A stretch of DNA of 64,000 nt from positions 609,115 through 673,114 of IMG/VR virus record IMGVR_UViG_3300021431_000075, one strand, 5' to 3'. The DNA comes from a virus. Lineage: Duplodnaviria; Caudoviricetes. The translations under genes and the position numbers were made by a program. The notes beneath the pieces were generated by a model that was given only the letters and a program-made list of their open reading frames with translations, did no database searches and was not told the DNA's origin. Shown here piece by piece: positions 27,466 to 46,837 of the stretch; within the stretch, counting starts at the first letter, position 1, and every line of letters begins with the position of its first letter.

Positions 27466-27489
27466 TTTTCAAAATAAATATCTTATAAT
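27466..27489 (+). promoter_or_regulatory. Extended late promoter of structural operon
   Basis: TTTTCAAAATAAATATCTTATAAT, 23 bp before ATG. Confidence 0.8.
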
Positions 27490-28116: not shown

Positions 28117-30210
28117 ATGGCTAAGAACAAGACTCCATTGCTGCGTCCATTAAGAGAACAAGGCGCGACGCTATATGTTTTTCCATCCGCAACAGAAGAC
28201 ATCGGTCTCAACATAAACAACGGAACAACCGGCGTTGCTCTGTCGCACTATGCGCTGATGAACTTCAACAGCAACAACACGAAGTTCGACTTCAGCACGT
28301 CACAAAGCCTGCTTGATCTTGCAAAGAGTCTGCAGAACTACGCGATGAACTTCGAGACAGCAGTGCTGAACCAGCCGAACTATAACTTCCAAGAGCCGTA
28401 CACCGTATCGGAGCATGTTTTCTGGCGATGGGTTGAGCATATACAGAAAACCGATTCAAAGGTTTTCAACGAAACGGAAATCGGAACGACCGGCTTGTAT
28501 AGGGAAGTGAACTACAAGTCGTCAGACACGAACAGGCTTGTCCAGTGCTTCGGTTCCATCGACGCGGGAAACTCGCTTTCAACCGACTTCGGAATGTTCA
28601 ACGAGACATATGTGAACATCCCGACAAGCTACGGCAACGGTCCTGTATTCTTTAGAAAAGTAACGAACAATCCGAACTTTGTGGCAGGTTCGTTCGTGGC
28701 GGCAAGTTCTAAAATTGAAGGAAGAAATGATGATGTCGGATATCTCGGTTCGATAAATTCAGAGTTTGATTCAAACGAAACGAACAATTACAGCATAAAA
28801 ACACCTTATGAAATCGTCAAGGACGTTCAGTCCATTCAGGCGGCTCTCCGCACACTATCCGGAGACAGCACTCTTTCCATATCTTCATATGACGATGTCA
28901 ATATCGACGCAGACGGAATCCTGAAAACAATCACAGAATCGAACGGTTCCGTATTTCCTTATGACATGTCAGAGAAGTGCGAGTTCAAGTTCAACGCGAT
29001 TCTCCTGTACTACTCGATTTATGACCTGAATGATGTTTACAAGCAGGCTATCGCCACGAACCTGTTCGGAATCGTTTTCCTGAACAACACGTCATCCGCT
29101 CCGTTCCTGACTCCGATGACAAAGAAGAAGTCGTACAACGGAAAGAGCAATGACAATGCGTATTTCGGAAACAGCTACTCGTTCAGAATCAATATCAAGA
29201 CGCTTTCCGTATATGACAACACGGATGCGAAGATTGATGACAATACGACCACGACATCTGCATACTCTGTCGATTTCAACGATGTCATATCGAACCTGAA
29301 CCGCGCAATCGACTCGATGAACACGAATGTCCAGACAACCCGTGCCATCCAAGACAACTACATGAGGATTCTCACGTACTACAACGAGGCAAAGGAGAAG
29401 ATTGAGTCTATCGAAGTCAAACTAAACAACAAGTTGTCAGATGGAATCTCTGATGCAATCGTCCAGATAAGCTCGGATATCGACGACCAGATAACAGCAA
29501 GACTTGTCGAACTCGGTCTCATCGACACAAGCAATCTGTCTTCTGACATGACAGAGACCATCAACGAGGGAAGCAGCCGGGGAGTACAGACTTATGGAAC
29601 GGCTCCGACATCTTATGCAGCGCCGAAGTCACTGAATATGCAAGGCAATTCCCTTGAAGGAGAACTCACCGGTTCCAGAGTCAATATCATATCCGCATCC
29701 GACACGAATGTCAAGGCTAACAACACTGTCAACATAACGGGAAAGAACATCGTTTTCAACGTCCAGTTGTCAAATGGAGAGTATGTAAGCATTCCGCTTG
29801 TCAATATTCTTGAAAAACTCAATATGCTAAAGAACTCCATCGATGACTTTGCAGAAAACATAGAGTTTGTCGATGATGACACTATAACATATGAGTCTGC
29901 AGCAAACATCGTGGATGATATGCAGGAAGCGCAGGAAAATCCGAAAACAGAAGAAAGAACAGCGGCAATCAAGTCTCTGTTCGACACGGTTGCAGTTCCG
30001 ATTGCCGGATTGCTTGTTCCATATGCAAAGAAGCCGACAGAAGCCGGCTTATATCTCAAGAAGAACACTGCCGGCAACATAGCGAACATCACACACTTCG
30101 ACGGAAACGACTATACACTGACAGACAAGTGCATCAGCGGAAAGATGTACATCATGGACGGTCTTGTCTATGTGTTCAACGGCGAAACTTGCAAGCCGCT
30201 TGGTGAATAA
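28117..30210 (+). CDS. Putative baseplate/tail structural protein
   Basis: 697 aa with central coiled coil; structural context. Confidence 0.6.
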   Translation: MAKNKTPLLRPLREQGATLYVFPSATEDIGLNINNGTTGVALSHYALMNFNSNNTKFDFSTSQSLLDLAKSLQNYAMNFETAVLNQPNYNFQEPYTVSEHVFWRWVEHIQKTDSKVFNETEIGTTGLYREVNYKSSDTNRLVQCFGSIDAGNSLSTDFGMFNETYVNIPTSYGNGPVFFRKVTNNPNFVAGSFVAASSKIEGRNDDVGYLGSINSEFDSNETNNYSIKTPYEIVKDVQSIQAALRTLSGDSTLSISSYDDVNIDADGILKTITESNGSVFPYDMSEKCEFKFNAILLYYSIYDLNDVYKQAIATNLFGIVFLNNTSSAPFLTPMTKKKSYNGKSNDNAYFGNSYSFRINIKTLSVYDNTDAKIDDNTTTTSAYSVDFNDVISNLNRAIDSMNTNVQTTRAIQDNYMRILTYYNEAKEKIESIEVKLNNKLSDGISDAIVQISSDIDDQITARLVELGLIDTSNLSSDMTETINEGSSRGVQTYGTAPTSYAAPKSLNMQGNSLEGELTGSRVNIISASDTNVKANNTVNITGKNIVFNVQLSNGEYVSIPLVNILEKLNMLKNSIDDFAENIEFVDDDTITYESAANIVDDMQEAQENPKTEERTAAIKSLFDTVAVPIAGLLVPYAKKPTEAGLYLKKNTAGNIANITHFDGNDYTLTDKCISGKMYIMDGLVYVFNGETCKPLGE

Positions 30211-30253
30211 CCGTCTCATAATCAATAAATACAAAAAATTATTCGATCGAATA

Positions 30254-33200
30254 ATGTCCAATATCAACAGTTTTTCCCAAAACATATCACAGACAGTTAC
30301 GAACAGCGCGAACACGCTGTCAATGCTCACCGCTATCCAGAAAAGCCTGAGCACGAACGACACCGTAACGACCTTCGACTATGATGACGGAAAAGGAAAT
30401 ACTATCCAGTACCAGTTGCCGAGCTACGACGCGGTCGTGAACAGGCTCAAGGCTGTCGAGGAGTCTCTCAACAACCTTGTTGCCGGAAAGGGGACAGTGA
30501 ACCTGAACGACGGTTCCAGACGCTCGATTACGCTTTCTACTATTCCGACAACTCCAGCACAGATAACAGGACTTGCAGATCCTTCGACATTCACGATAGA
30601 CAGCAACTGGTTCTTTGAAGAACTGATGTTTCCGGGAGCGCAGGTCGAGATTGACCTGACCGGACAGATAGATGACACTTCTGACAGAGTCAAGGTCGTG
30701 AGAGTCATTCTCAACGCGCAGGATGACGATGCCACGACTTTCTGGAACACGACTCTTGCAAGCAACAGCTATTCATATCCTGACTTAAGACAAGAACTCA
30801 CGAACAACGGAATCGCTTATTCGATTGACGAAGAGGTCGTTCAGATGCCGCTTGTCAGCAACCAAGTGAACGGAACGTTCCAGATTACAGATGACCCGAT
30901 TGTCATCAACGGCAACGTCTGGTATCCGATTGACACAATATCGTACTCGACGATAGACAATGACGGTGTCAATGTCGGTCAGAACAACATCCTGTCAATC
31001 GGAGACAGGCTCAGCTACTCTGACTCTATATTCGAGATAGTCGAGATAGACCAGAACAACAACAGAATTAGAATCAAGAAAGTGAGCGGCGCAGAGATGC
31101 CCGGAACCTTCTCGATGCTGCATTTCTACCAAGACCCGTTCAGAAACAAGACTCTCAAGGTCAGATTCGGCGCGCATGAATATGACATCATCTACTTCAA
31201 GGGAATCAGCGAGAACTACAACCTGCTTGCAGACGAATGGTCAACACCTGTCAAGTTCGCATCAGACGACCTTGTCCTTTCCGGCACTTCCGGACTCCAG
31301 CAGACGAACTTCTCGTCATATTACCAGCAGTATGTGGTGGACTGGGGCAGGGAGATGATAGCGGAAGCAAAGGAGCGCAGGGTTTCTGCATACTACGGAA
31401 ACATTCCGAACACTCCGACACTCAATGCCGACGATTTCCGCGTCGTTCAAATCAACACGCAAATCAATGCGGCAATCGACACGACTGATGTAAAGAACAC
31501 AGCTGCTGAAATAGAAAGCGTCAAGTCCCAGATAGCATCTCTTAAAAGCACGATTGCCGCTCAAAAGACAGACCTGCAGTCTGCCGTGAACCTATACACA
31601 TACAACTCGATTCAAGAGCAAATTTCAACCAACACGACAGACCTGAACAATCTTCAGACCACATACACCACGCTTGTTAACAGCTTCCAGACAATCGTAA
31701 GGGAAAATGCTGCAATCACAGCGGTTCCGAAATACCACATCAGAGGCTTCTTCCCTATTCCGGACTACAAGTTCAGGGACGAGGAAGAAACAAGTCCGGA
31801 AATCATCATCGGTTTCGACATAGCATACCGATACATCAAGGAAGACGACACTGCGACACAACTCAACACGTTCACATATACGAACACGGACGGCTCGGAA
31901 ACCACGGGAACATTCACAGACTGGATTCTTACGCAGAGTTCGTTGAAAACGATGAAGTATGATAACGATTTGCAAAGATATGTCTGGGTTGACGAGAACG
32001 TGGCAGACGGAACCGAGACGAACATCAACCAGATAGACATCGCAATCAACAAGGGAGAGAAGGTGCAAATCAAGGTCCGCTCCATTTCAGAAGCCGGTTA
32101 TCCAAGAAACCCTCTCCGCTCGGACTGGTCGAATGTCGTGACCGTTGACTTTCCAAGCACGCTTGCAACAAGCAACGAGATTGCAGACTTGATTAAGGAA
32201 GTCAACGACGATGCATTGACAATCACAATCAACAACAATCTTGATTCCGCCGGCGTCACAGAGCACTTGGATGACACGATTCCGAACAGCAATTCTGTAA
32301 ACGGTCTCTACTTCAAGCATCAGGCAAAGAACATCGCTTATGAGGAGAGCATGACAACAGACGGAACAACTGTCGTGAACTCAATCAGTCTGCAGGACAA
32401 GATTTCGCAACTGTTCACGAAAATATCCGACAACTCGTTCAATGTTTCCACAAACGAGACTGCAATCAACGACATCCGTTCAGAGATGCATGAGAAGCAT
32501 TCGCAGTACGAGGAAAGCATATCAAGCATCAACGCTCTTGACGAAGTCCAGAATGCGAGCATCAATCTCAACACTTCCAAGATAGACTCAATCAGAACAG
32601 ACAGAGGTTATGTCAAGACAGAGAGAGTCATCATGACAAACGACGAAGGAACCGGAAAGGTTTCTGTCACCCCGATGGGAATGAACGAACTGTTTGTCAT
32701 CGACTCTTCGACAACAGACACGACATCACTCGTGCCAATCCATGCGAAAGATGTTTTCATACACAAGAGCGGCTCGCTTGTCGATTCGATTTCAGTAACA
32801 TCAGAGATAGAAAGACTCAATGAAAACACATCTTCGAACCTTGACAAGATTAACGACATCAATGCAAGCATCAGTCGTGTGAACGACAGGCTTACAGACA
32901 TAAACAACCTGCACACGCTGGACGTGAGCCTTTTGCGTGCCGAGCATGTCGAACTGCAGGAAGAAGTCGCGTCATTCCATGAGAAGTCAACGAACGAGGC
33001 TCTGTTCAACACGATGTATCTCGGTTACAAGTTCTCAGCGACCGCAACGCAGACTCCTAAGACGAAGCTCTCGACAAACGACGCGACCGGTATGCTCTAT
33101 GTATATGACGGTCAGTCTGAAGAGCAGCTCGGAATCGTCAATGCGGAAGACTTCAAGATATACACGAACGGTTATCTCTCAGGAAACGTTGTCTCGATGA

Positions 33201-34321
33201 GCGAGGTTGCAGAAGTCGTAACAGACCATGACAATGACATCAACACGATTCAAGACAACATCGGAAGCATCAACGACACCCTTTCAAAGATTTCATACAA
33301 GGTCAGCGACCAAGACATGCAGGTCCGCGGAAACTCCATGAACATAACCGGGAAGGGAACTATATCCACAGTCAGCTGCACGGATTTCGAAGTCACGAAC
33401 GGAAACGCTTTGTGGGTTGCGAACGGAACCAATACGGCACAGCTTGTAGATGGTCACTTCAAGAACATATACCTGCATGAAGCCGGTCAGAAAAGTTCTT
33501 CAGCATTGAACATGCTTGGTGAAATCAAGAATGCATCTACTGTAATAACAGAGCATGAAGATATTCTTAACGGAGTTGGCGGATTGACGGAAATTCACCA
33601 ATATGTTGATAATGAGCACATTCTCAAAAACATAACAGAAATTATATCCGAAACGACAAGAACAAACGGATTGTCTGTTGAAGAAGATAATGTTCCGATG
33701 AGCGGTGCCACATTCAAGGCATATGGTTCCAATGTCATCCTCACGTCCAACTTGAACGGAAATTCAGACGAATATGCTCCGCTTGTCGTTCAAGATGTCG
33801 TTTTGAAAGCAAACGCGAATGCAAGCGAGACAAGACTTCAGGACTATATAACGAACACATTGACTCCTGCGCTTGAAGTCACGAACATGTCAAAGGAAAT
33901 GTTCAATGCGTCTGCCGGAAACGCATCAACGAACCTGAACCTGCACGGTGTGACTGTCAACAGCAACTTCAATATCGTACAGCCGACGAATCCGAACTCC
34001 GGATACCAGATTTCAAGAATGTCATACTTTCCAAACGCGAACGGCGGCAACGGCGTATATTTCAGCGACATATCACCGACCGGCGAGGAAAGACCCGGTT
34101 CCATCAAGTGCGGAAGTCTGTATGCGAACCAGATATTCTATGAAAGTGGAAATGAAACGCAAAGTCTCGACAGTTTCATTAGAGACATAGTTCCATTAGA
34201 CACACAGACAAGAATCAATGAGATAGTAAACATATTAAGAAGCATGGTAACAGATGCATCTCTTTCTGCACACATAAGTCCAACTTTAAAGCAAAGACTC
34301 AATCAATTGGGAAATTTATAA
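30254..34321 (+). CDS. Large putative tail/baseplate protein with coiled-coil and fibre-like C-terminus
   Basis: Likely start MSNINSF at 30254 after AATAAATA (30224). Confidence 0.65.
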   Translation: MSNINSFSQNISQTVTNSANTLSMLTAIQKSLSTNDTVTTFDYDDGKGNTIQYQLPSYDAVVNRLKAVEESLNNLVAGKGTVNLNDGSRRSITLSTIPTTPAQITGLADPSTFTIDSNWFFEELMFPGAQVEIDLTGQIDDTSDRVKVVRVILNAQDDDATTFWNTTLASNSYSYPDLRQELTNNGIAYSIDEEVVQMPLVSNQVNGTFQITDDPIVINGNVWYPIDTISYSTIDNDGVNVGQNNILSIGDRLSYSDSIFEIVEIDQNNNRIRIKKVSGAEMPGTFSMLHFYQDPFRNKTLKVRFGAHEYDIIYFKGISENYNLLADEWSTPVKFASDDLVLSGTSGLQQTNFSSYYQQYVVDWGREMIAEAKERRVSAYYGNIPNTPTLNADDFRVVQINTQINAAIDTTDVKNTAAEIESVKSQIASLKSTIAAQKTDLQSAVNLYTYNSIQEQISTNTTDLNNLQTTYTTLVNSFQTIVRENAAITAVPKYHIRGFFPIPDYKFRDEEETSPEIIIGFDIAYRYIKEDDTATQLNTFTYTNTDGSETTGTFTDWILTQSSLKTMKYDNDLQRYVWVDENVADGTETNINQIDIAINKGEKVQIKVRSISEAGYPRNPLRSDWSNVVTVDFPSTLATSNEIADLIKEVNDDALTITINNNLDSAGVTEHLDDTIPNSNSVNGLYFKHQAKNIAYEESMTTDGTTVVNSISLQDKISQLFTKISDNSFNVSTNETAINDIRSEMHEKHSQYEESISSINALDEVQNASINLNTSKIDSIRTDRGYVKTERVIMTNDEGTGKVSVTPMGMNELFVIDSSTTDTTSLVPIHAKDVFIHKSGSLVDSISVTSEIERLNENTSSNLDKINDINASISRVNDRLTDINNLHTLDVSLLRAEHVELQEEVASFHEKSTNEALFNTMYLGYKFSATATQTPKTKLSTNDATGMLYVYDGQSEEQLGIVNAEDFKIYTNGYLSGNVVSMSEVAEVVTDHDNDINTIQDNIGSINDTLSKISYKVSDQDMQVRGNSMNITGKGTISTVSCTDFEVTNGNALWVANGTNTAQLVDGHFKNIYLHEAGQKSSSALNMLGEIKNASTVITEHEDILNGVGGLTEIHQYVDNEHILKNITEIISETTRTNGLSVEEDNVPMSGATFKAYGSNVILTSNLNGNSDEYAPLVVQDVVLKANANASETRLQDYITNTLTPALEVTNMSKEMFNASAGNASTNLNLHGVTVNSNFNIVQPTNPNSGYQISRMSYFPNANGGNGVYFSDISPTGEERPGSIKCGSLYANQIFYESGNETQSLDSFIRDIVPLDTQTRINEIVNILRSMVTDASLSAHISPTLKQRLNQLGNL

Positions 34322-34339
34322 TTTGATAAAAATTAAAAG

Positions 34340-34370
34340 AAAAAGAGATGCACGATTTGCACCTCTTTTT
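34340..34370. terminator. Intrinsic terminator
   Basis: AAAAAGAGATGCA/TGCACCTCTTTTT. Confidence 0.7.
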
Positions 34371-34431
34371 CTTTCTTTACAAGTTCAAAAAGCAACATAT
34401 TCTTTCTTTACAAGTTCAAAAAGCAACATAT
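34370..34431. repeat. Perfect 31-bp tandem duplication
   Basis: TCTTTCTTTACAAGTTCAAAAAGCAACATAT x2. Confidence 0.95.
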
Positions 34432-34680
34432 CTGCTTTTCAAAATAAATAGTTCCGTAGAACATAGAAATTCATAGAATCCCGTATGTTTACTTTCTTTT
34501 GACGATTCATCGGTGACTTGGTACTCACAAGACCGTTCATTAAATGAACGCGTTTTCCTATAGGTCATCTCCACGTCCCGTCTCCCCGAACTCAGGGGCA
34601 GCCCGGACTGTCGGACTCCGGGAAATCCAGAGACAGCTTAATGTCTCTACGAGTTTATAAAGAACAATGACAGAGAATCT
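34415..34680 (-). ncRNA. Structured ncRNA resembling a TnpB (IS605/IS607) omega-RNA, orphan
   Basis: No ORF; dedicated promoter (34687-34716) and terminator (34418-34439); CCCC-TGAGTTC-GGGG hairpin, GACG-TGGAG-ATGAC...GTCAC-CGATGAAT-CGTC-AAAAGAA core, loop AGTTC complementary to terminal GAACT. Confidence 0.65.
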
Positions 34681-34686
34681 ACATAA

Positions 34687-34716
34687 GTATACTACAAGAT
34701 GACAAAATAGTTTAAA
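34687..34716 (-). promoter_or_regulatory. Phage promoter class TTTAAAC-N17-GTATAC driving the ncRNA
   Basis: TTTAAACTATTTTGTCATCTTGTAGTATAC. Confidence 0.75.
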
Positions 34717-34845
34717 AAACTTCAATGTTTTTTTGATAGCATATTAAATGAAATTAGTTAATAAATACTATACAAAAATAATAAATTCTTGTGGTTTTGC
34801 ATCATATGTACAAAGCCATTTAAAGAACCACATCATTACATTGCA

Positions 34846-37800
34846 ATGAGCGAGATTAAATGCATATTGACACTTGAGAAAAGAACGCTTGTCGTTGACT
34901 TCACATCACTATTCGGAAAAGACGCGCAGTTCGGAAACACACTGTCGATAACCGTAGATTCAACTACTAATGAAATGTTCAACCAGTATGTCAACGGAAG
35001 CGAGGACGGAACTGTCAAGTCGCATCTGTTCATCAACGGAGTCAGGTTCAGCGACCTTAACGGTTCGGACAACACGAGAACCATTGATTATCCATCAGAC
35101 ACACAAAGGCACATTGCAACAGTAAGCATAGAACCGGATTCCATATATTTCGCAGAAGGAGACTTGACGCTCTCGTTCGGAAGCGAATACACGGTCAAGG
35201 TCAACATATCGGACAATGACACGCAGACGATAGAAAGCCGCTCGTTCACAGCAAACCAGCTTGACATGACTCTCGAGACATACATGCTTGTCAGAACGAA
35301 CCCGAAACTTTCCGGAAACATCAAGCTCGTCGTCGATAGCAAGTACAGGCTTTACCTTGACACGATAAAGGACAGCGGCTCGTCCATGCTGAACGACCGC
35401 GTGTACAGAAAGTATCCGATTTCGTCAGAAGGAAACTATCCGTTCGACGTGATGACCGTGTTCTCAAGCCTTCCGAAAAGCGAACTGTTCAAGCTTCCGA
35501 AAGACTCGCTGAATCCTCACAAGAACTTCAACGACTACAAGAACCAGTTCTTCACGAACTACGAATACGGCGCAGAGACGAACACGGACAACCTGTATCC
35601 GGAAAACATGAAGATTCTTGCCCCGATCCATATCGGAAAGACGATTCCGGACTTCTTCACCATATTCAGATATGACGGAACGTTCAATGAAGAGACATAC
35701 GGTTCTGTCGATATAAACGATACAGAAAAACTGATTTCATTGCTCAAGGAATCGGAAGTCGTGAAGATTTTCGACCTCAGGACATATACGCCAATCGGTC
35801 AGTACCTGAACAACTACAAGAAATACATCAAGGATTTCCTATACGGTTCCTGTCACTTGCAGTTTATCGAGCAAGACAATGAGAAGTACGGTCAGAACTA
35901 CAGACAGGGCAACAACTCTTGGAGAGGCATCGCAATCGACAAGGGAATCATCACGAACAAGATAGAGACTTCGTATTTCGGAAACAACATACTAACTTCC
36001 GAACTCGGAGTTCAGGAAAGGTTTGACGAGTACATCATCAACGGCTATGAGAGAAACAACATCCTGTACCCGTACATCATCAACCTTGAGTTCATGTTCA
36101 ATGACGAGAAAACCGAAGAGTACTCAATGCACAGGTACTTCGGTCTGTACCTCAGCTCGAACAGTTTCCTCAACTACGACTGCATCGTGACTGACAACCA
36201 CAAGGGAAACAACGTGGTCCACAAGTATGACAAGAACGACAATGAAATCTATGACGCGGGAATCATCGACTCGATTTTCAACAAGAAGTTCGCAGACCGC
36301 ATCTTCTTCATGACAACAAACAACGACGCGACAAGAATACAAAGCAACGATGATGTCAAGAAGTTCATCAGCAACTATGTCATCGACAACCCGGACAAGA
36401 ACATCTGCAACGTGCGTGCCGACAAGGTTGACTGGGAAGACGAGGACAAGTCGTTCATAACCCTGAACTTCACAGAGCCGATTGAATACGGCGAACACCT
36501 GAGAATCGTCGCTCTTGACTATTACAATGAAATCGAGAAGAAATTCCAGAACATCTGCCTTGAAATCATCGCTTCCAATGACGCGAGACTGATTTCAACA
36601 GACTACAACATATCTCCGTACATATACACGAACGAGCCGCTCATCAACAAAGTGCAGGAGAACCAGACAGAAAACAACATATACAGACTGTCTTTCTATA
36701 CGCAGGACTTGGCAGATGCATCAAAGCCAGCTTCTCTACAAGAACAGTTATCGAGAATAAGGCACTGCATCGACAAGTTCGACATGTTTGCAAAGGTGGA
36801 ATCAATGAACGAGAACACCATCGGAATCTCATCAATGCATGACAAGACTTTCTTCCAGCACATCGCAAAGATGAACAAGTATCCGGAGCCGGCATACGAG
36901 AAGTTCTACATCAAGGATGACAAGCTATACTACACCGGCGAACAGAGCATAGAGAACAATCAGTCATCATACATCATAGACATCAGGGACGCGCTCGGAT
37001 GCGAATGCGAGCATATCGGTCAGGACAATAGTGAAATTCATAGCGGAAACACAGTCAATAATGTTTTCTACTCAAAGGACAATGACATCGAAAACAGCAA
37101 GATAGCAACATATGTAGAGTACAAGTCCAATGAAGTGAAAGATACCATCAGATACTTCTCCAAGACATTCGACAGCCTTATGCATCCTCTGTCTCCGGAC
37201 TCTTACTACTACTATAGCAAGTTTGCAACATTCTCCACATTCAGTTTCGATGTTCTTGGATGGAGATACTCGAACATTGTGGAATTCAAGAAGATAAGCG
37301 ACTTCAAGCATCCTTATGTCATATATGATGACATCGAAAGCATATTGAAAGTCGTAAGGCATCCTCTGACAAAATGCATCACCGGTCAGTTCGAGACGAT
37401 GAACAAGATTGGCATCAACACCGGATACTTGACAGACAATCCGCTTGTTCTTATCGGCAACGACACGATGACCCAGAAACTCAAGTTCACAGAATCCGAG
37501 TATAATCTTATCGTGTGTCCGTACAACGTGGACAAGACAGTCATAGATTTCGCCATAGAGCCGCTTCTTGTGAACTACATGCTCGGTCTCTACAATCCGG
37601 AATCTGCAGACCTGTGCATCATGGGCATATTCAATGTCAAGGATATGGACCTGACAATCGACATGAACCAGTCTGTGAACATCACAAGTTCGGACCAGAT
37701 GTTCATCAAAGCTGGCGATACCGTATATACGAACAACCGTAACGATGACAGGATTCTCCACAACATCGTATATAAGATTGACAGCGGTTCTTTCAACGAG

Positions 37801-40053
37801 TTCAGCGCGTCAAAGTTCATCATCATCGGCGACAAGCTATATACAAGCGGAACAGACGAATCGACATCGGTTGTCAGGGTGATAGACCTGTTCAAGGGTT
37901 CTCTCACAGCAGCGACAGACATAAGACTTGAAGTGTGCGACTCCAACTGCAAGCAGACGTTCGACTTCATTAAGAACATCCCGCAGCACAAGTCGAGGAA
38001 CTTCTACATCAACTCTGACGAGTCAAGGCAACTGAACATATCAATCGTTCCGCAGTCGAACTGCATATGGGAATCGAACGGTCAGTACTTCGACGGAAAC
38101 AACTCGCTCAATGTCGATGACATGGTATCAAACGTTCCATACAAGATGAACGGATACTTCATCGAGCATGGTTTCTCGCAGAGCGGTTCCGTGAACCAGA
38201 ACATGTTCATCAAGAACTCTCTGGACACGTTCATGAAAATCGGAACAGAATATCACAACTTCAGAAAGATAATCAACAACAACTTGATTAAGAATCCTTT
38301 GAAGAACCTGCTCATACAGAACACGAACATCAGTCCGGCAATCGGTTACTACAACTCGTTCGTCCAGTCGCTTGAGTTCATATTCTACGGAATCAAGTTC
38401 AACATCAAGTTCAACAGCGAGTACTACAACCAGAACCTGCGCATCGGCGAATACAATAACTTCGAGGTGTTTGTCATCAATGACTATGACATCAACAAGA
38501 ACAATGAAATCGTCATATCGGCAGACGAGGAAATCATCATCATCGTCAACCACAAGTTCAACCTGTACGGAGACGATGCAAGATACTCTCAAGTCAAGAT
38601 GATTTCGGAAACCAACATTTCCGCAACCGCTCCGTACTCTGCTACACAGGCTCCGTACTCTCTCAAGACAGAGAGCGTGTTCACGATGCCGGGTCTTGAC
38701 AACACAAGAAAGAACTTCTTGGCTGCAAAGTCCGGAACCGGAACAGTCAACAAGTCGCAGAACACCGCTTATGTTCAAATAGACAAGGTCTCTACCGAAT
38801 ATGTCAACAACATGAGCGTAAAGCCGAGCTACTTGTACTTCGAGACACCGGATTATGAAGATGACAACTCGATTGCTATCAACAGAGGCACTACATATAT
38901 GTTAGACTCGTCAGTCGTTTCAGCGGGCAATGAAGAATCATATGGCATCAAGAAGTTCCCTGTGGACTATGAAGATATCGACTTGCTGTCCCAAAAGCAC
39001 AGGAAAACAGAATCTTTCATCATCAACAACAAGGAAACATCCGACTATACAGCGGTTGACGCTTCCAAAATGATAGGAAAATTCATCGCTTCGTTCGACG
39101 ACAACTACGACTGCTATGTAATCTCGAACGGAAAATGCGAGAACATCCACATAACCAAGACGTACAAGCCTATTACGGTCAGCCTGAGCATTCCGAACCA
39201 AATTAAGTACAACTTCGGCTACTTCACTCCGAGAACATACGACATCATCAATTTCAAGACAAACGACCATGAAGTTGCCGGAGCGATAAACATGTCCATG
39301 CTTCTCGGAAACACGAAAGTTGATTCTGTCAACAAAATCAAGTGCTATACCGGAAACAAGGTGTTTGACACGAAGATAGAGACAAGCATCGACAAGAACT
39401 ACTTCATCAATGCATACAAGTCTCCGTTCGCGTCGAATTGGGACAAAGACTACTACCGCAAGTACAACATAGAAAGCCAAGACAGTTATACAGGTCTCAA
39501 CGGTTACCTTCCGGGAATCGAGGACAAGTCGTTCTTCGGCTCGAAGTGCATGACGCTGAAAACCAACTTCATAAAGATAAGCGACTTCACAGACAGAAAA
39601 GCGAACAAGGGCGACATAGTCCGTGTTGACAGCCAGCACAACATACTTTCGGAAAACGAGAACCAGTACCGTTTCATAATAAATATAACACAGGCTCTAT
39701 ACACTCTGTTCCAGAGCAATACGACATTCACTTCCAACTGGATTGGATTCACAAGCGGCGTAGATACGTCAATCAAGAACTATATAAAGAGCACGATTTC
39801 AGAAATTTTCAACAATCAGAGAAAGTGCGATGTCGTCATCGAATGCATCAATGACAATGAAAACGAGCAGATGAGAATCTCATACAGCCCGTTCGACACA
39901 GATAACGAGAATGTATTCACAGTGGATAACTTCCACACGGAGGCATCCATCGAAAACGAAGACTATCTGATAACTGTCACAATCAGAGAGATGAAACACA
40001 CGGTAATCCATCCATATGTGAAGATATACAGATATGTTCAACCGACGAAATGA
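34846..40053 (+). CDS. Very large putative virion (baseplate) protein
   Basis: ~1735 aa from MSEIK; late motif AATAAATA at 34760. Confidence 0.65.
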   Translation: MSEIKCILTLEKRTLVVDFTSLFGKDAQFGNTLSITVDSTTNEMFNQYVNGSEDGTVKSHLFINGVRFSDLNGSDNTRTIDYPSDTQRHIATVSIEPDSIYFAEGDLTLSFGSEYTVKVNISDNDTQTIESRSFTANQLDMTLETYMLVRTNPKLSGNIKLVVDSKYRLYLDTIKDSGSSMLNDRVYRKYPISSEGNYPFDVMTVFSSLPKSELFKLPKDSLNPHKNFNDYKNQFFTNYEYGAETNTDNLYPENMKILAPIHIGKTIPDFFTIFRYDGTFNEETYGSVDINDTEKLISLLKESEVVKIFDLRTYTPIGQYLNNYKKYIKDFLYGSCHLQFIEQDNEKYGQNYRQGNNSWRGIAIDKGIITNKIETSYFGNNILTSELGVQERFDEYIINGYERNNILYPYIINLEFMFNDEKTEEYSMHRYFGLYLSSNSFLNYDCIVTDNHKGNNVVHKYDKNDNEIYDAGIIDSIFNKKFADRIFFMTTNNDATRIQSNDDVKKFISNYVIDNPDKNICNVRADKVDWEDEDKSFITLNFTEPIEYGEHLRIVALDYYNEIEKKFQNICLEIIASNDARLISTDYNISPYIYTNEPLINKVQENQTENNIYRLSFYTQDLADASKPASLQEQLSRIRHCIDKFDMFAKVESMNENTIGISSMHDKTFFQHIAKMNKYPEPAYEKFYIKDDKLYYTGEQSIENNQSSYIIDIRDALGCECEHIGQDNSEIHSGNTVNNVFYSKDNDIENSKIATYVEYKSNEVKDTIRYFSKTFDSLMHPLSPDSYYYYSKFATFSTFSFDVLGWRYSNIVEFKKISDFKHPYVIYDDIESILKVVRHPLTKCITGQFETMNKIGINTGYLTDNPLVLIGNDTMTQKLKFTESEYNLIVCPYNVDKTVIDFAIEPLLVNYMLGLYNPESADLCIMGIFNVKDMDLTIDMNQSVNITSSDQMFIKAGDTVYTNNRNDDRILHNIVYKIDSGSFNEFSASKFIIIGDKLYTSGTDESTSVVRVIDLFKGSLTAATDIRLEVCDSNCKQTFDFIKNIPQHKSRNFYINSDESRQLNISIVPQSNCIWESNGQYFDGNNSLNVDDMVSNVPYKMNGYFIEHGFSQSGSVNQNMFIKNSLDTFMKIGTEYHNFRKIINNNLIKNPLKNLLIQNTNISPAIGYYNSFVQSLEFIFYGIKFNIKFNSEYYNQNLRIGEYNNFEVFVINDYDINKNNEIVISADEEIIIIVNHKFNLYGDDARYSQVKMISETNISATAPYSATQAPYSLKTESVFTMPGLDNTRKNFLAAKSGTGTVNKSQNTAYVQIDKVSTEYVNNMSVKPSYLYFETPDYEDDNSIAINRGTTYMLDSSVVSAGNEESYGIKKFPVDYEDIDLLSQKHRKTESFIINNKETSDYTAVDASKMIGKFIASFDDNYDCYVISNGKCENIHITKTYKPITVSLSIPNQIKYNFGYFTPRTYDIINFKTNDHEVAGAINMSMLLGNTKVDSVNKIKCYTGNKVFDTKIETSIDKNYFINAYKSPFASNWDKDYYRKYNIESQDSYTGLNGYLPGIEDKSFFGSKCMTLKTNFIKISDFTDRKANKGDIVRVDSQHNILSENENQYRFIINITQALYTLFQSNTTFTSNWIGFTSGVDTSIKNYIKSTISEIFNNQRKCDVVIECINDNENEQMRISYSPFDTDNENVFTVDNFHTEASIENEDYLITVTIREMKHTVIHPYVKIYRYVQPTK

Positions 40054-46219: not shown

Positions 46220-46837
46220 ATGCCCAGATACTGCAAACTGTCAGACTATGCAAAGAAATACGGAGTCACATACAGGACCGCTTTCAACAGGTTCAATGCA
46301 GGAAAGATAGAAGGAGCAATAAGAGACAAAACTGGACACATTTGCGTTCCCATCGACTACATCCAGAATGCATCATCAACGAATGTGGTCATATATGCCA
46401 CTGCTCTTTCAAACAAGGAAGAACACATCAGGAAACTGAACGAGCAGATAAGCACCATCAAGAAATACTGCAATGCAAAGGGATATCATGTCACCAAGAT
46501 TGTAACAGAGTTCGCATCTTCCATCACAGCAAGCCATCCAAAACTTATCGAACTGATGAAAGACAACTCTTGCAAGCATATCGTCATCGACAATCCGGCA
46601 ACAGTCTCCCGTTTCAGTTTCGACATCATCAGAGAACTGTTCGAATCATGCGGAAAGGAAATCGAGGCGATGAACACCGAAGACTATGACAAAAACGCAC
46701 TTCGCGAAGACTTTGTCAAGGTCATCTACAATGTCTGCAAGACTCTCAACAACCAGAAGATTCCGAAGAAGAACATAATGAAACTAATCGACAATCTATC
46801 ATTAAGCACAGAAGAAAGCAAATTGAGCGCATCATAA
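46220..46837 (+). CDS. IS607-family TnpA-like protein (HTH + serine recombinase fold), catalytically degenerate
   Basis: KLSDYAKKYGVTYRTAFNRFNAGKI HTH; canonical YARVS is YATAL and DRLxRF is ATVSRF; no tnpB downstream. Confidence 0.8.
   Translation: MPRYCKLSDYAKKYGVTYRTAFNRFNAGKIEGAIRDKTGHICVPIDYIQNASSTNVVIYATALSNKEEHIRKLNEQISTIKKYCNAKGYHVTKIVTEFASSITASHPKLIELMKDNSCKHIVIDNPATVSRFSFDIIRELFESCGKEIEAMNTEDYDKNALREDFVKVIYNVCKTLNNQKIPKKNIMKLIDNLSLSTEESKLSAS

Follow-up and report, generated by a model that had tools for sequence, protein, structure and literature searches.

The GC-rich block that lies in front of a virion structural gene of this megaphage is, with a probability that we put at about 85%, a non-autonomous mini-transposon of the IS607 family which has inserted into the late promoter of that gene, and the guide of its predicted RNA is the flanking DNA, with a presumed selfish role in homing. 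An earlier note on this DNA had pointed to a complementarity between the guide and the phage's own late promoters, and had proposed that a nuclease-dead TnpB uses the RNA to control late genes; as a simpler alternative it had considered an IS remnant that had landed in a late promoter. This alternative is borne out by the empty sites and the element boundaries described below, and the match between the guide and the promoters is most likely a by-product of the insertion site, not a regulatory circuit. The repeat family, its boundaries, the variable flanks, the empty sites, the cognate genes and their catalytic residues are established observations.

By the window we mean the whole 64-kb stretch of DNA that was analysed; its position in the virus record and the coordinates of the features discussed are given in Table 1. 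When its N-terminal 600 aa were searched, the 1735-aa protein encoded downstream of the block was 44% identical to the 'Virion structural protein' of Wendovervirus sonii, a 660-kb phage (Grandevirales, Epsomviridae), and many further homologues were found on 0.5-Mb contigs. Judged by these homologues, the host replicon is a Lak-like megaphage. Neither the block nor the 20 kb around it had a blastn match in GenBank phages, and the C-terminus of the upstream gene, used as a protein pattern against IMG/VR, found nothing. The element sits in a 524-nt gap between two very large genes of the plus strand (30164-34321 and 34846-40053).

Table 1. Features of the element, of its setting and of the late promoters (window coordinates unless marked as genome).
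Feature	Position	Strand	Remark
Analysed window	last 64 kb of the 673,114-bp virus record		record with direct terminal repeats
Protein-less IS607-derived element	34450..34771	-	322 bp, MITE/PATE-like; repeat family; missing in the L032 orthologous site
Omega-RNA (reRNA) scaffold	34448..34603	-	156 nt, 92-96% identical to the autonomous copies
Guide in the true register (right-end flank)	34428..34447	-	first 12 nt = upstream half of the virion gene's late promoter
Promoter motif TTTAAAC-N17-GTATAC in the element	34687..34716	-	points at the scaffold
TTTAAAC-N17-GTATAC class in the window	17951-, 23286-, 27316-, 34713-
Target/TAM tetranucleotide ATAC (GTAT on the RNA strand), left-end junction	34770..34773	+	its AT = repeated crossover dinucleotide
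Original late-promoter box AATAAATA of the virion gene	34443..34450	+	now 322 bp further upstream
Second AATAAATA box, in the element's left end	34760..34767	+	one base differs from the other copies
Virion structural protein gene, 1735 aa	34846..40053	+	promoter hit by the element; homologue named in Wendovervirus sonii
Bidirectional intrinsic terminator hairpin	34335..34375	.	ends the upstream gene's transcript
Autonomous copies, ~2.6 kb each	genome 117 kb, 200 kb		tnpA + tnpB
Short copies without ORF	c1 (window); sister c2 (genome 585.7 kb)
Other divergent TnpB-like genes (four)	genome 84357-86009, 132885-134297, 173895-175148, 308602-309855		PF07282
Copies of the 14-mer	27466; 34436; genome 469062
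AATAAATATCTTATAATA extended late promoters in the window	15268-, 27473+, 46076-, 49321+
Partial guide match, structural-operon promoter	27466..27481	-	12 nt at 27466-27477; preceded by ATAT at 27478-27481

The block belongs to a repeat family with four members in the genome, two full IS607-like elements and two protein-less ones. When metagenome contigs were searched with a 20-mer from the scaffold, 14 more loci came up, comprising both long and short forms. The short form occupies at least eight distinct insertion sites. In both full copies the shared 156 nt begin 6 nt past the tnpB stop codon, and in all copies compared (14/14) the conserved sequence terminates in GAACTAT, beyond which the flanks are unrelated. 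A fixed boundary followed by a variable flank is the anatomy of a TnpB right end and its omega RNA, and the recognition of a TnpB-type omega/reRNA scaffold in the earlier note is borne out by the right-end position, the fixed boundary and the variable flanks. At the opposite side, short and long copies also agree in the left-end terminus, over about 13 nt past the GTAT target; this is clearest in c2. The element thus defined consists of a left end, an internal phage-type promoter, the omega-RNA scaffold and a right end; as either junction carries AT, the placement 34448-34769 is equivalent to that given in Table 1. The features of a MITE/PATE-like element were all found: lack of coding capacity, ends as in the autonomous element, several sites of insertion and empty alleles.

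In the short copies, the motif TTTAAAC-N17-GTATAC precedes the scaffold when the RNA strand is read. It occurs in 27 genome copies with exactly this spacing, that of c2 included, and one of them lies directly 5' of a tRNA (genome 173175). The strong terminator hairpin listed in Table 1, which follows downstream on this strand, would end the primary omega-RNA transcript about 75–110 nt past the scaffold. A consensus fold of the scaffold contains 43 predicted pairs, three of which show compensatory changes; since the copies are 91–96% identical, this covariation support is thin, and the single-sequence fold is no better than that of shuffled sequences (z -0.4). Neither at gathering nor at permissive thresholds did Rfam contain a meaningful family for the scaffold, and a search for tRNA and tmRNA genes found none.

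Comparison with relatives provides the element-free state of the locus. The two large genes are 172 nt apart in P0003 and in P0002, whose downstream virion proteins are 81% and 86% identical to that of the present phage, versus 524 nt here. The 81% relative L032 reads through the junction uninterrupted, with AT present once, the same upstream 12 nt and the same AATAAATA box, which is followed there by AC and an A-rich run. The window differs from L032 by a 322-bp insert (34450-34771), with AT/TAT at both junctions, and by a 31-nt tandem duplication. For the metagenomic insertion L008, the left flank including GTAT, joined to the right flank, aligns gap-free to the uninterrupted homologous sequence of the present genome. 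L033, another contig from the present phage, is identical to the window, so that for this exact phage only the occupied allele has been seen and the element may be fixed there and not actively homing. RATAAATA boxes are also found 5' of the orthologous virion gene in the more distant relatives L034 and L035, which indicates that the promoter of this gene is older than the insertion; on this comparison it is ancestral and the element arrived later. The promoter that was hit belongs only to the minimal RATAAATA class: its reading as an extended-class promoter was ruled out, since the joined site is without the TCTT core.

The 31-nt duplication is perfect and occupies 34369-34430, with the terminator on one side and the guide on the other; L032 does not have it. 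Its distal edge falls 17 nt into the protospacer, roughly where TnpB enzymes cut, and it could be a repair scar.

On the RNA strand, the left end is preceded by GTAT in 11 of 11 independent junctions, and GTAT occurs once in both empty-site comparisons; in the 5–8 nt upstream of the left end there is no consensus beyond it. GTAT is therefore the predicted TAM. Among the four invariant bases, only position -4 differs between GTAT at the target and CTAT at the end of the element itself, and for this reason it is likely to be read by TnpB. In c1 there is an AT at each junction, and in L032 a single one, as results from an IS607 crossover at a matching dinucleotide. In IS607 elements, the right-flanking crossover bases are fixed and form part of the scaffold, and the TAM includes the crossover dinucleotide (PMC10711439). 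The window junctions fit this published mechanism, and, as GAACTAT is common to all copies, the AT at 34448-34449 is fixed element/crossover sequence and the guide proper begins at 34447. The scaffold end at GAACT (34450) given in the earlier note was thus correct to within 2 nt, and the register of the guide moves accordingly, all 14 copies ending in GAACTAT.

The autonomous copies encode a 196-aa TnpA with an N-terminal HTH and a Resolvase domain (PF00239; 2e-19 and 2e-20), upstream of a tnpB gene for a 522-aa protein with PF07282, PF01385 and PF12323, an arrangement which is that of the IS607 family. The 92–96% identity of the scaffolds makes this 522-aa protein the partner of the window RNA; the cognate protein for which the earlier note had advised a search is thus encoded elsewhere in the genome, and in the window itself no TnpB-like gene was found. 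In alignment to ISDra2 TnpB (8EXA/8BF8), both copies retain the RuvC residues D (GLDLG), E (VTED/VTEN) and D (NRDEG). The zinc ribbon is kept in both copies as well. In ISDra2 TnpB the corresponding RuvC residues are D191/E278/D361. Judged by these residues, the cognate 522-aa TnpB is not nuclease-dead. For three of the four divergent TnpB-like proteins of the genome (two of 417 aa and one of 470 aa), a rough MAFFT alignment contained no alignable RuvC glutamate. A further relative of the element's proteins is a 205-aa ORF of the window (46220-46834, plus strand), just upstream of the portal region, which is 40% identical to the element TnpA; its catalytic-serine motif is altered (YATALS versus YARVSS in TnpA), and it may represent an IS607 recombinase/HTH protein that has been domesticated and is inactive.

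The genome of this phage carries an extended promoter motif of 18 nt, AATAAATATCTTATAATA, with 13 exact copies and 28 when up to one mismatch is allowed, mostly 20–50 nt 5' of start codons. Its length and rigidity are unusual for a phage late promoter. One such promoter is found just downstream of the portal gene and directly before a peptidase-like gene, a placement that makes the label 'late' reasonable. The sequence features on which the regulatory proposal had been built were confirmed: the 19-mer guide of the earlier note is the reverse complement of 34431-34449, its first 14 nt are the reverse complement of 27466-27479, where the flank AAGAT is present, and 7–8 nt are common to this guide and the other three extended promoters of the window (15268-, 46076- and 49321+). 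The 14-mer, being identical between 34436-34449 and 27466-27479, has three exact copies in the 673,114-bp genome versus about 0.04 expected from the base composition, and with up to two mismatches it has 11 sites in the window versus 2.45 ± 1.55 in shuffles. In the correct register, which follows from the GAACTAT end, the guide matches the 27466 promoter over only 12 nt. A 159-aa ORF has a late promoter (genome 469062-469080) in which GTAT adjoins 12 nt that match the c1 guide perfectly. Of the partial self-targets compatible with the predicted TAM this is the best, and the element could potentially also insert there.

The insertion has affected the layout of the promoter itself. The last A of the AATAAATA box at 34443..34450 comes from the element, and a second AATAAATA box is indeed present at 34760-34767; it lies inside the left end. 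A target-site duplication was ruled out as an explanation of the pair, since only AT/TAT is repeated at the junctions and the second box is internal. At the position of the second box other copies read AATGAATA or AATGATTA. The change from AATGAATA to AATAAATA gives the downstream gene another late-promoter box, 79 nt ahead of its start codon, and a terminator-like hairpin of the plus strand is found within the element (34534-34550). Taken together, the second box and the internal hairpin suggest a compensation for the displaced promoter.

Of the other readings of the match, a pure coincidence between A/T-rich 14-mers without a common cause appears very improbable. The sequence is indeed A/T-rich and other guides too show chance seeds of 10–12 nt, but against this stand the three exact copies where 0.04 were expected, the location of all three about 25–75 nt 5' of start codons together with a late box, and the presence of the same stretch in the orthologous promoter of the relative; the shared promoter origin explains the match, and chance is thereby disfavoured. 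Exceedingly improbable in our estimation is the proposal that a nuclease-dead TnpB (TldR), or an activator of the dCas12f/sigma type, employs the RNA at all extended late promoters. The guide does match the promoters, and among the four divergent TnpB-like genes the catalytic glutamate lacks a confident alignment. The scaffold, however, is 92–96% identical to the right ends of elements that encode the 522-aa TnpB with its RuvC D-E-D intact, no TnpB-like gene accompanies it in the window, and the empty sites and the differing guides show the element to be mobile. An empty site in relatives and variable guides had been set against this proposal in the earlier note itself: the relatives have the empty site, and the guides of the other copies are unrelated. 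The predicted TAM also speaks against the proposal, since GTAT, as deduced from 11 junctions and two empty sites, would be incompatible at one of four positions with the ATAT offered by the extended late promoters, that at 27466 included; the late promoter at genome 469073 does offer GTAT.

A third possibility is that the c1 omega-RNA has been co-opted together with the nuclease-competent TnpB, which would bind the promoters at 27466 and 469062 uncut and damp or time late transcription; such a regulator would be TldR-like in its effect without a dead nuclease. We consider this unlikely, and quite unlikely the more specific form of it in which binding of the two sites by TnpB and the RNA of the mini-transposon constitutes a transposon-derived brake on late genes and an early pre-TldR step. 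In its favour, two late promoters each contain a 12-nt seed directly 3' of (A/G)TAT, the one at 469073 with the exact GTAT, and the element bears a promoter of a genuine phage class, with a terminator after it. Moreover, a TnpB able to cleave has been shown to bind DNA and leave it uncut when its guide is 10 nt long (PMC13507860), and on this account some weight is given to weak binding of TnpB at one or two late promoters, improbable as it seems from the sequence. The 12 nt are, however, ancestral promoter sequence that is present in the uninterrupted site of the relative; the guides of the other three genomic copies, used as controls, give 10–12-nt seeds in the genome as well; and the other copies of the element carry unrelated guides. 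Furthermore, the extended promoters, offering ATAT, differ from the target at precisely the position -4 that discriminates GTAT from the CTAT end, the remaining late promoters match over only 5–8 nt, and the A/T-rich match would make for a weak heteroduplex.

The mini-transposon reading may be formulated as the following sequence of events. The element has retained the two ends and the omega-RNA scaffold, a phage-type promoter standing where tnpA and tnpB would be, and the serine recombinase that the copies at genome 117 kb and 200 kb encode would move it in trans. It inserted by crossover at the AT inside GTAT (ATAC on the plus strand), where the late-promoter box of the 1735-aa gene has its 3' edge. 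Since the ends are the same and the flanks unrelated across at least 14 copies, the guide is whatever DNA adjoins the insertion, here the upstream half of the virion gene's promoter, and it resembles other late promoters only because the promoter consensus is common to all of them. The element-free relative already has the promoter-like 12 nt, which thus give no sign of selection on the guide, which by this comparison is an unselected flank. Loaded into TnpB made in trans, the predicted omega-RNA would direct cleavage of the element-free allele, the predicted target being GTAT and the adjoining ~16–20 nt in sibling or co-infecting genomes, and recombination after the cleavage would restore the element. 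Transcription of the element, loading of its RNA into TnpB, the TAM and homing are points that we infer from the sequence.

Among known systems the closest likeness is to IS607 elements with TnpB, e.g., ISXfa1 (PMC10711439), with which our family shares a serine-recombinase TnpA followed by tnpB, a reRNA scaffold at the right end, a crossover dinucleotide that is found at both junctions and forms the last bases of the scaffold, a guide taken from the right flank, and a TAM containing the crossover dinucleotide. It differs in that the crossover is AT within GTAT and not GG/GGG, that the TnpB is enlarged (522 aa), that the replicon is a 673-kb Lak-like megaphage and that the window copy is without both genes. 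Protein-less elements encoding omega-RNAs that are used in trans have been described for IS200/605 (Meers et al., bioRxiv 10.1101/2023.03.14.532601). The window element is like these PATE-type IS200/IS605 derivatives in having no ORF, ends of the autonomous type, a conserved omega-RNA and a need for TnpB in trans; in contrast to them, its chemistry would be that of the IS607 serine recombinase and not of the Y1 family, and the phage-specific TTTAAAC-N17-GTATAC motif replaces the genes. By this analogy, the element may be regarded as the IS607-type counterpart, in a megaphage, of the protein-less IS200/605 omega-RNA elements. With TldR (bioRxiv 10.1101/2023.11.30.569447) it shares a TnpB-type guide RNA complementary to a promoter and the phage setting. 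TldR, however, requires loss of the RuvC triad, which the cognate TnpB here keeps; the element is still mobile, its guide being an unselected flank equal to the ancestral sequence; and there is no conserved guide–target pairing across the relatives.

These results document an IS607-type protein-less element with a predicted omega-RNA, the boundaries, AT crossover and predicted GTAT TAM of which are derived from empty sites and which is apparently active in Lak-like megaphages that inhabit gut or rumen communities. They also call for caution in scans for RNA-guided transcription factors, as a match between a guide and a promoter can arise free when an omega-RNA transposon lands in a promoter. 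If the regulatory reading were true, such elements would be raw material for the evolution of TldR-like regulators.
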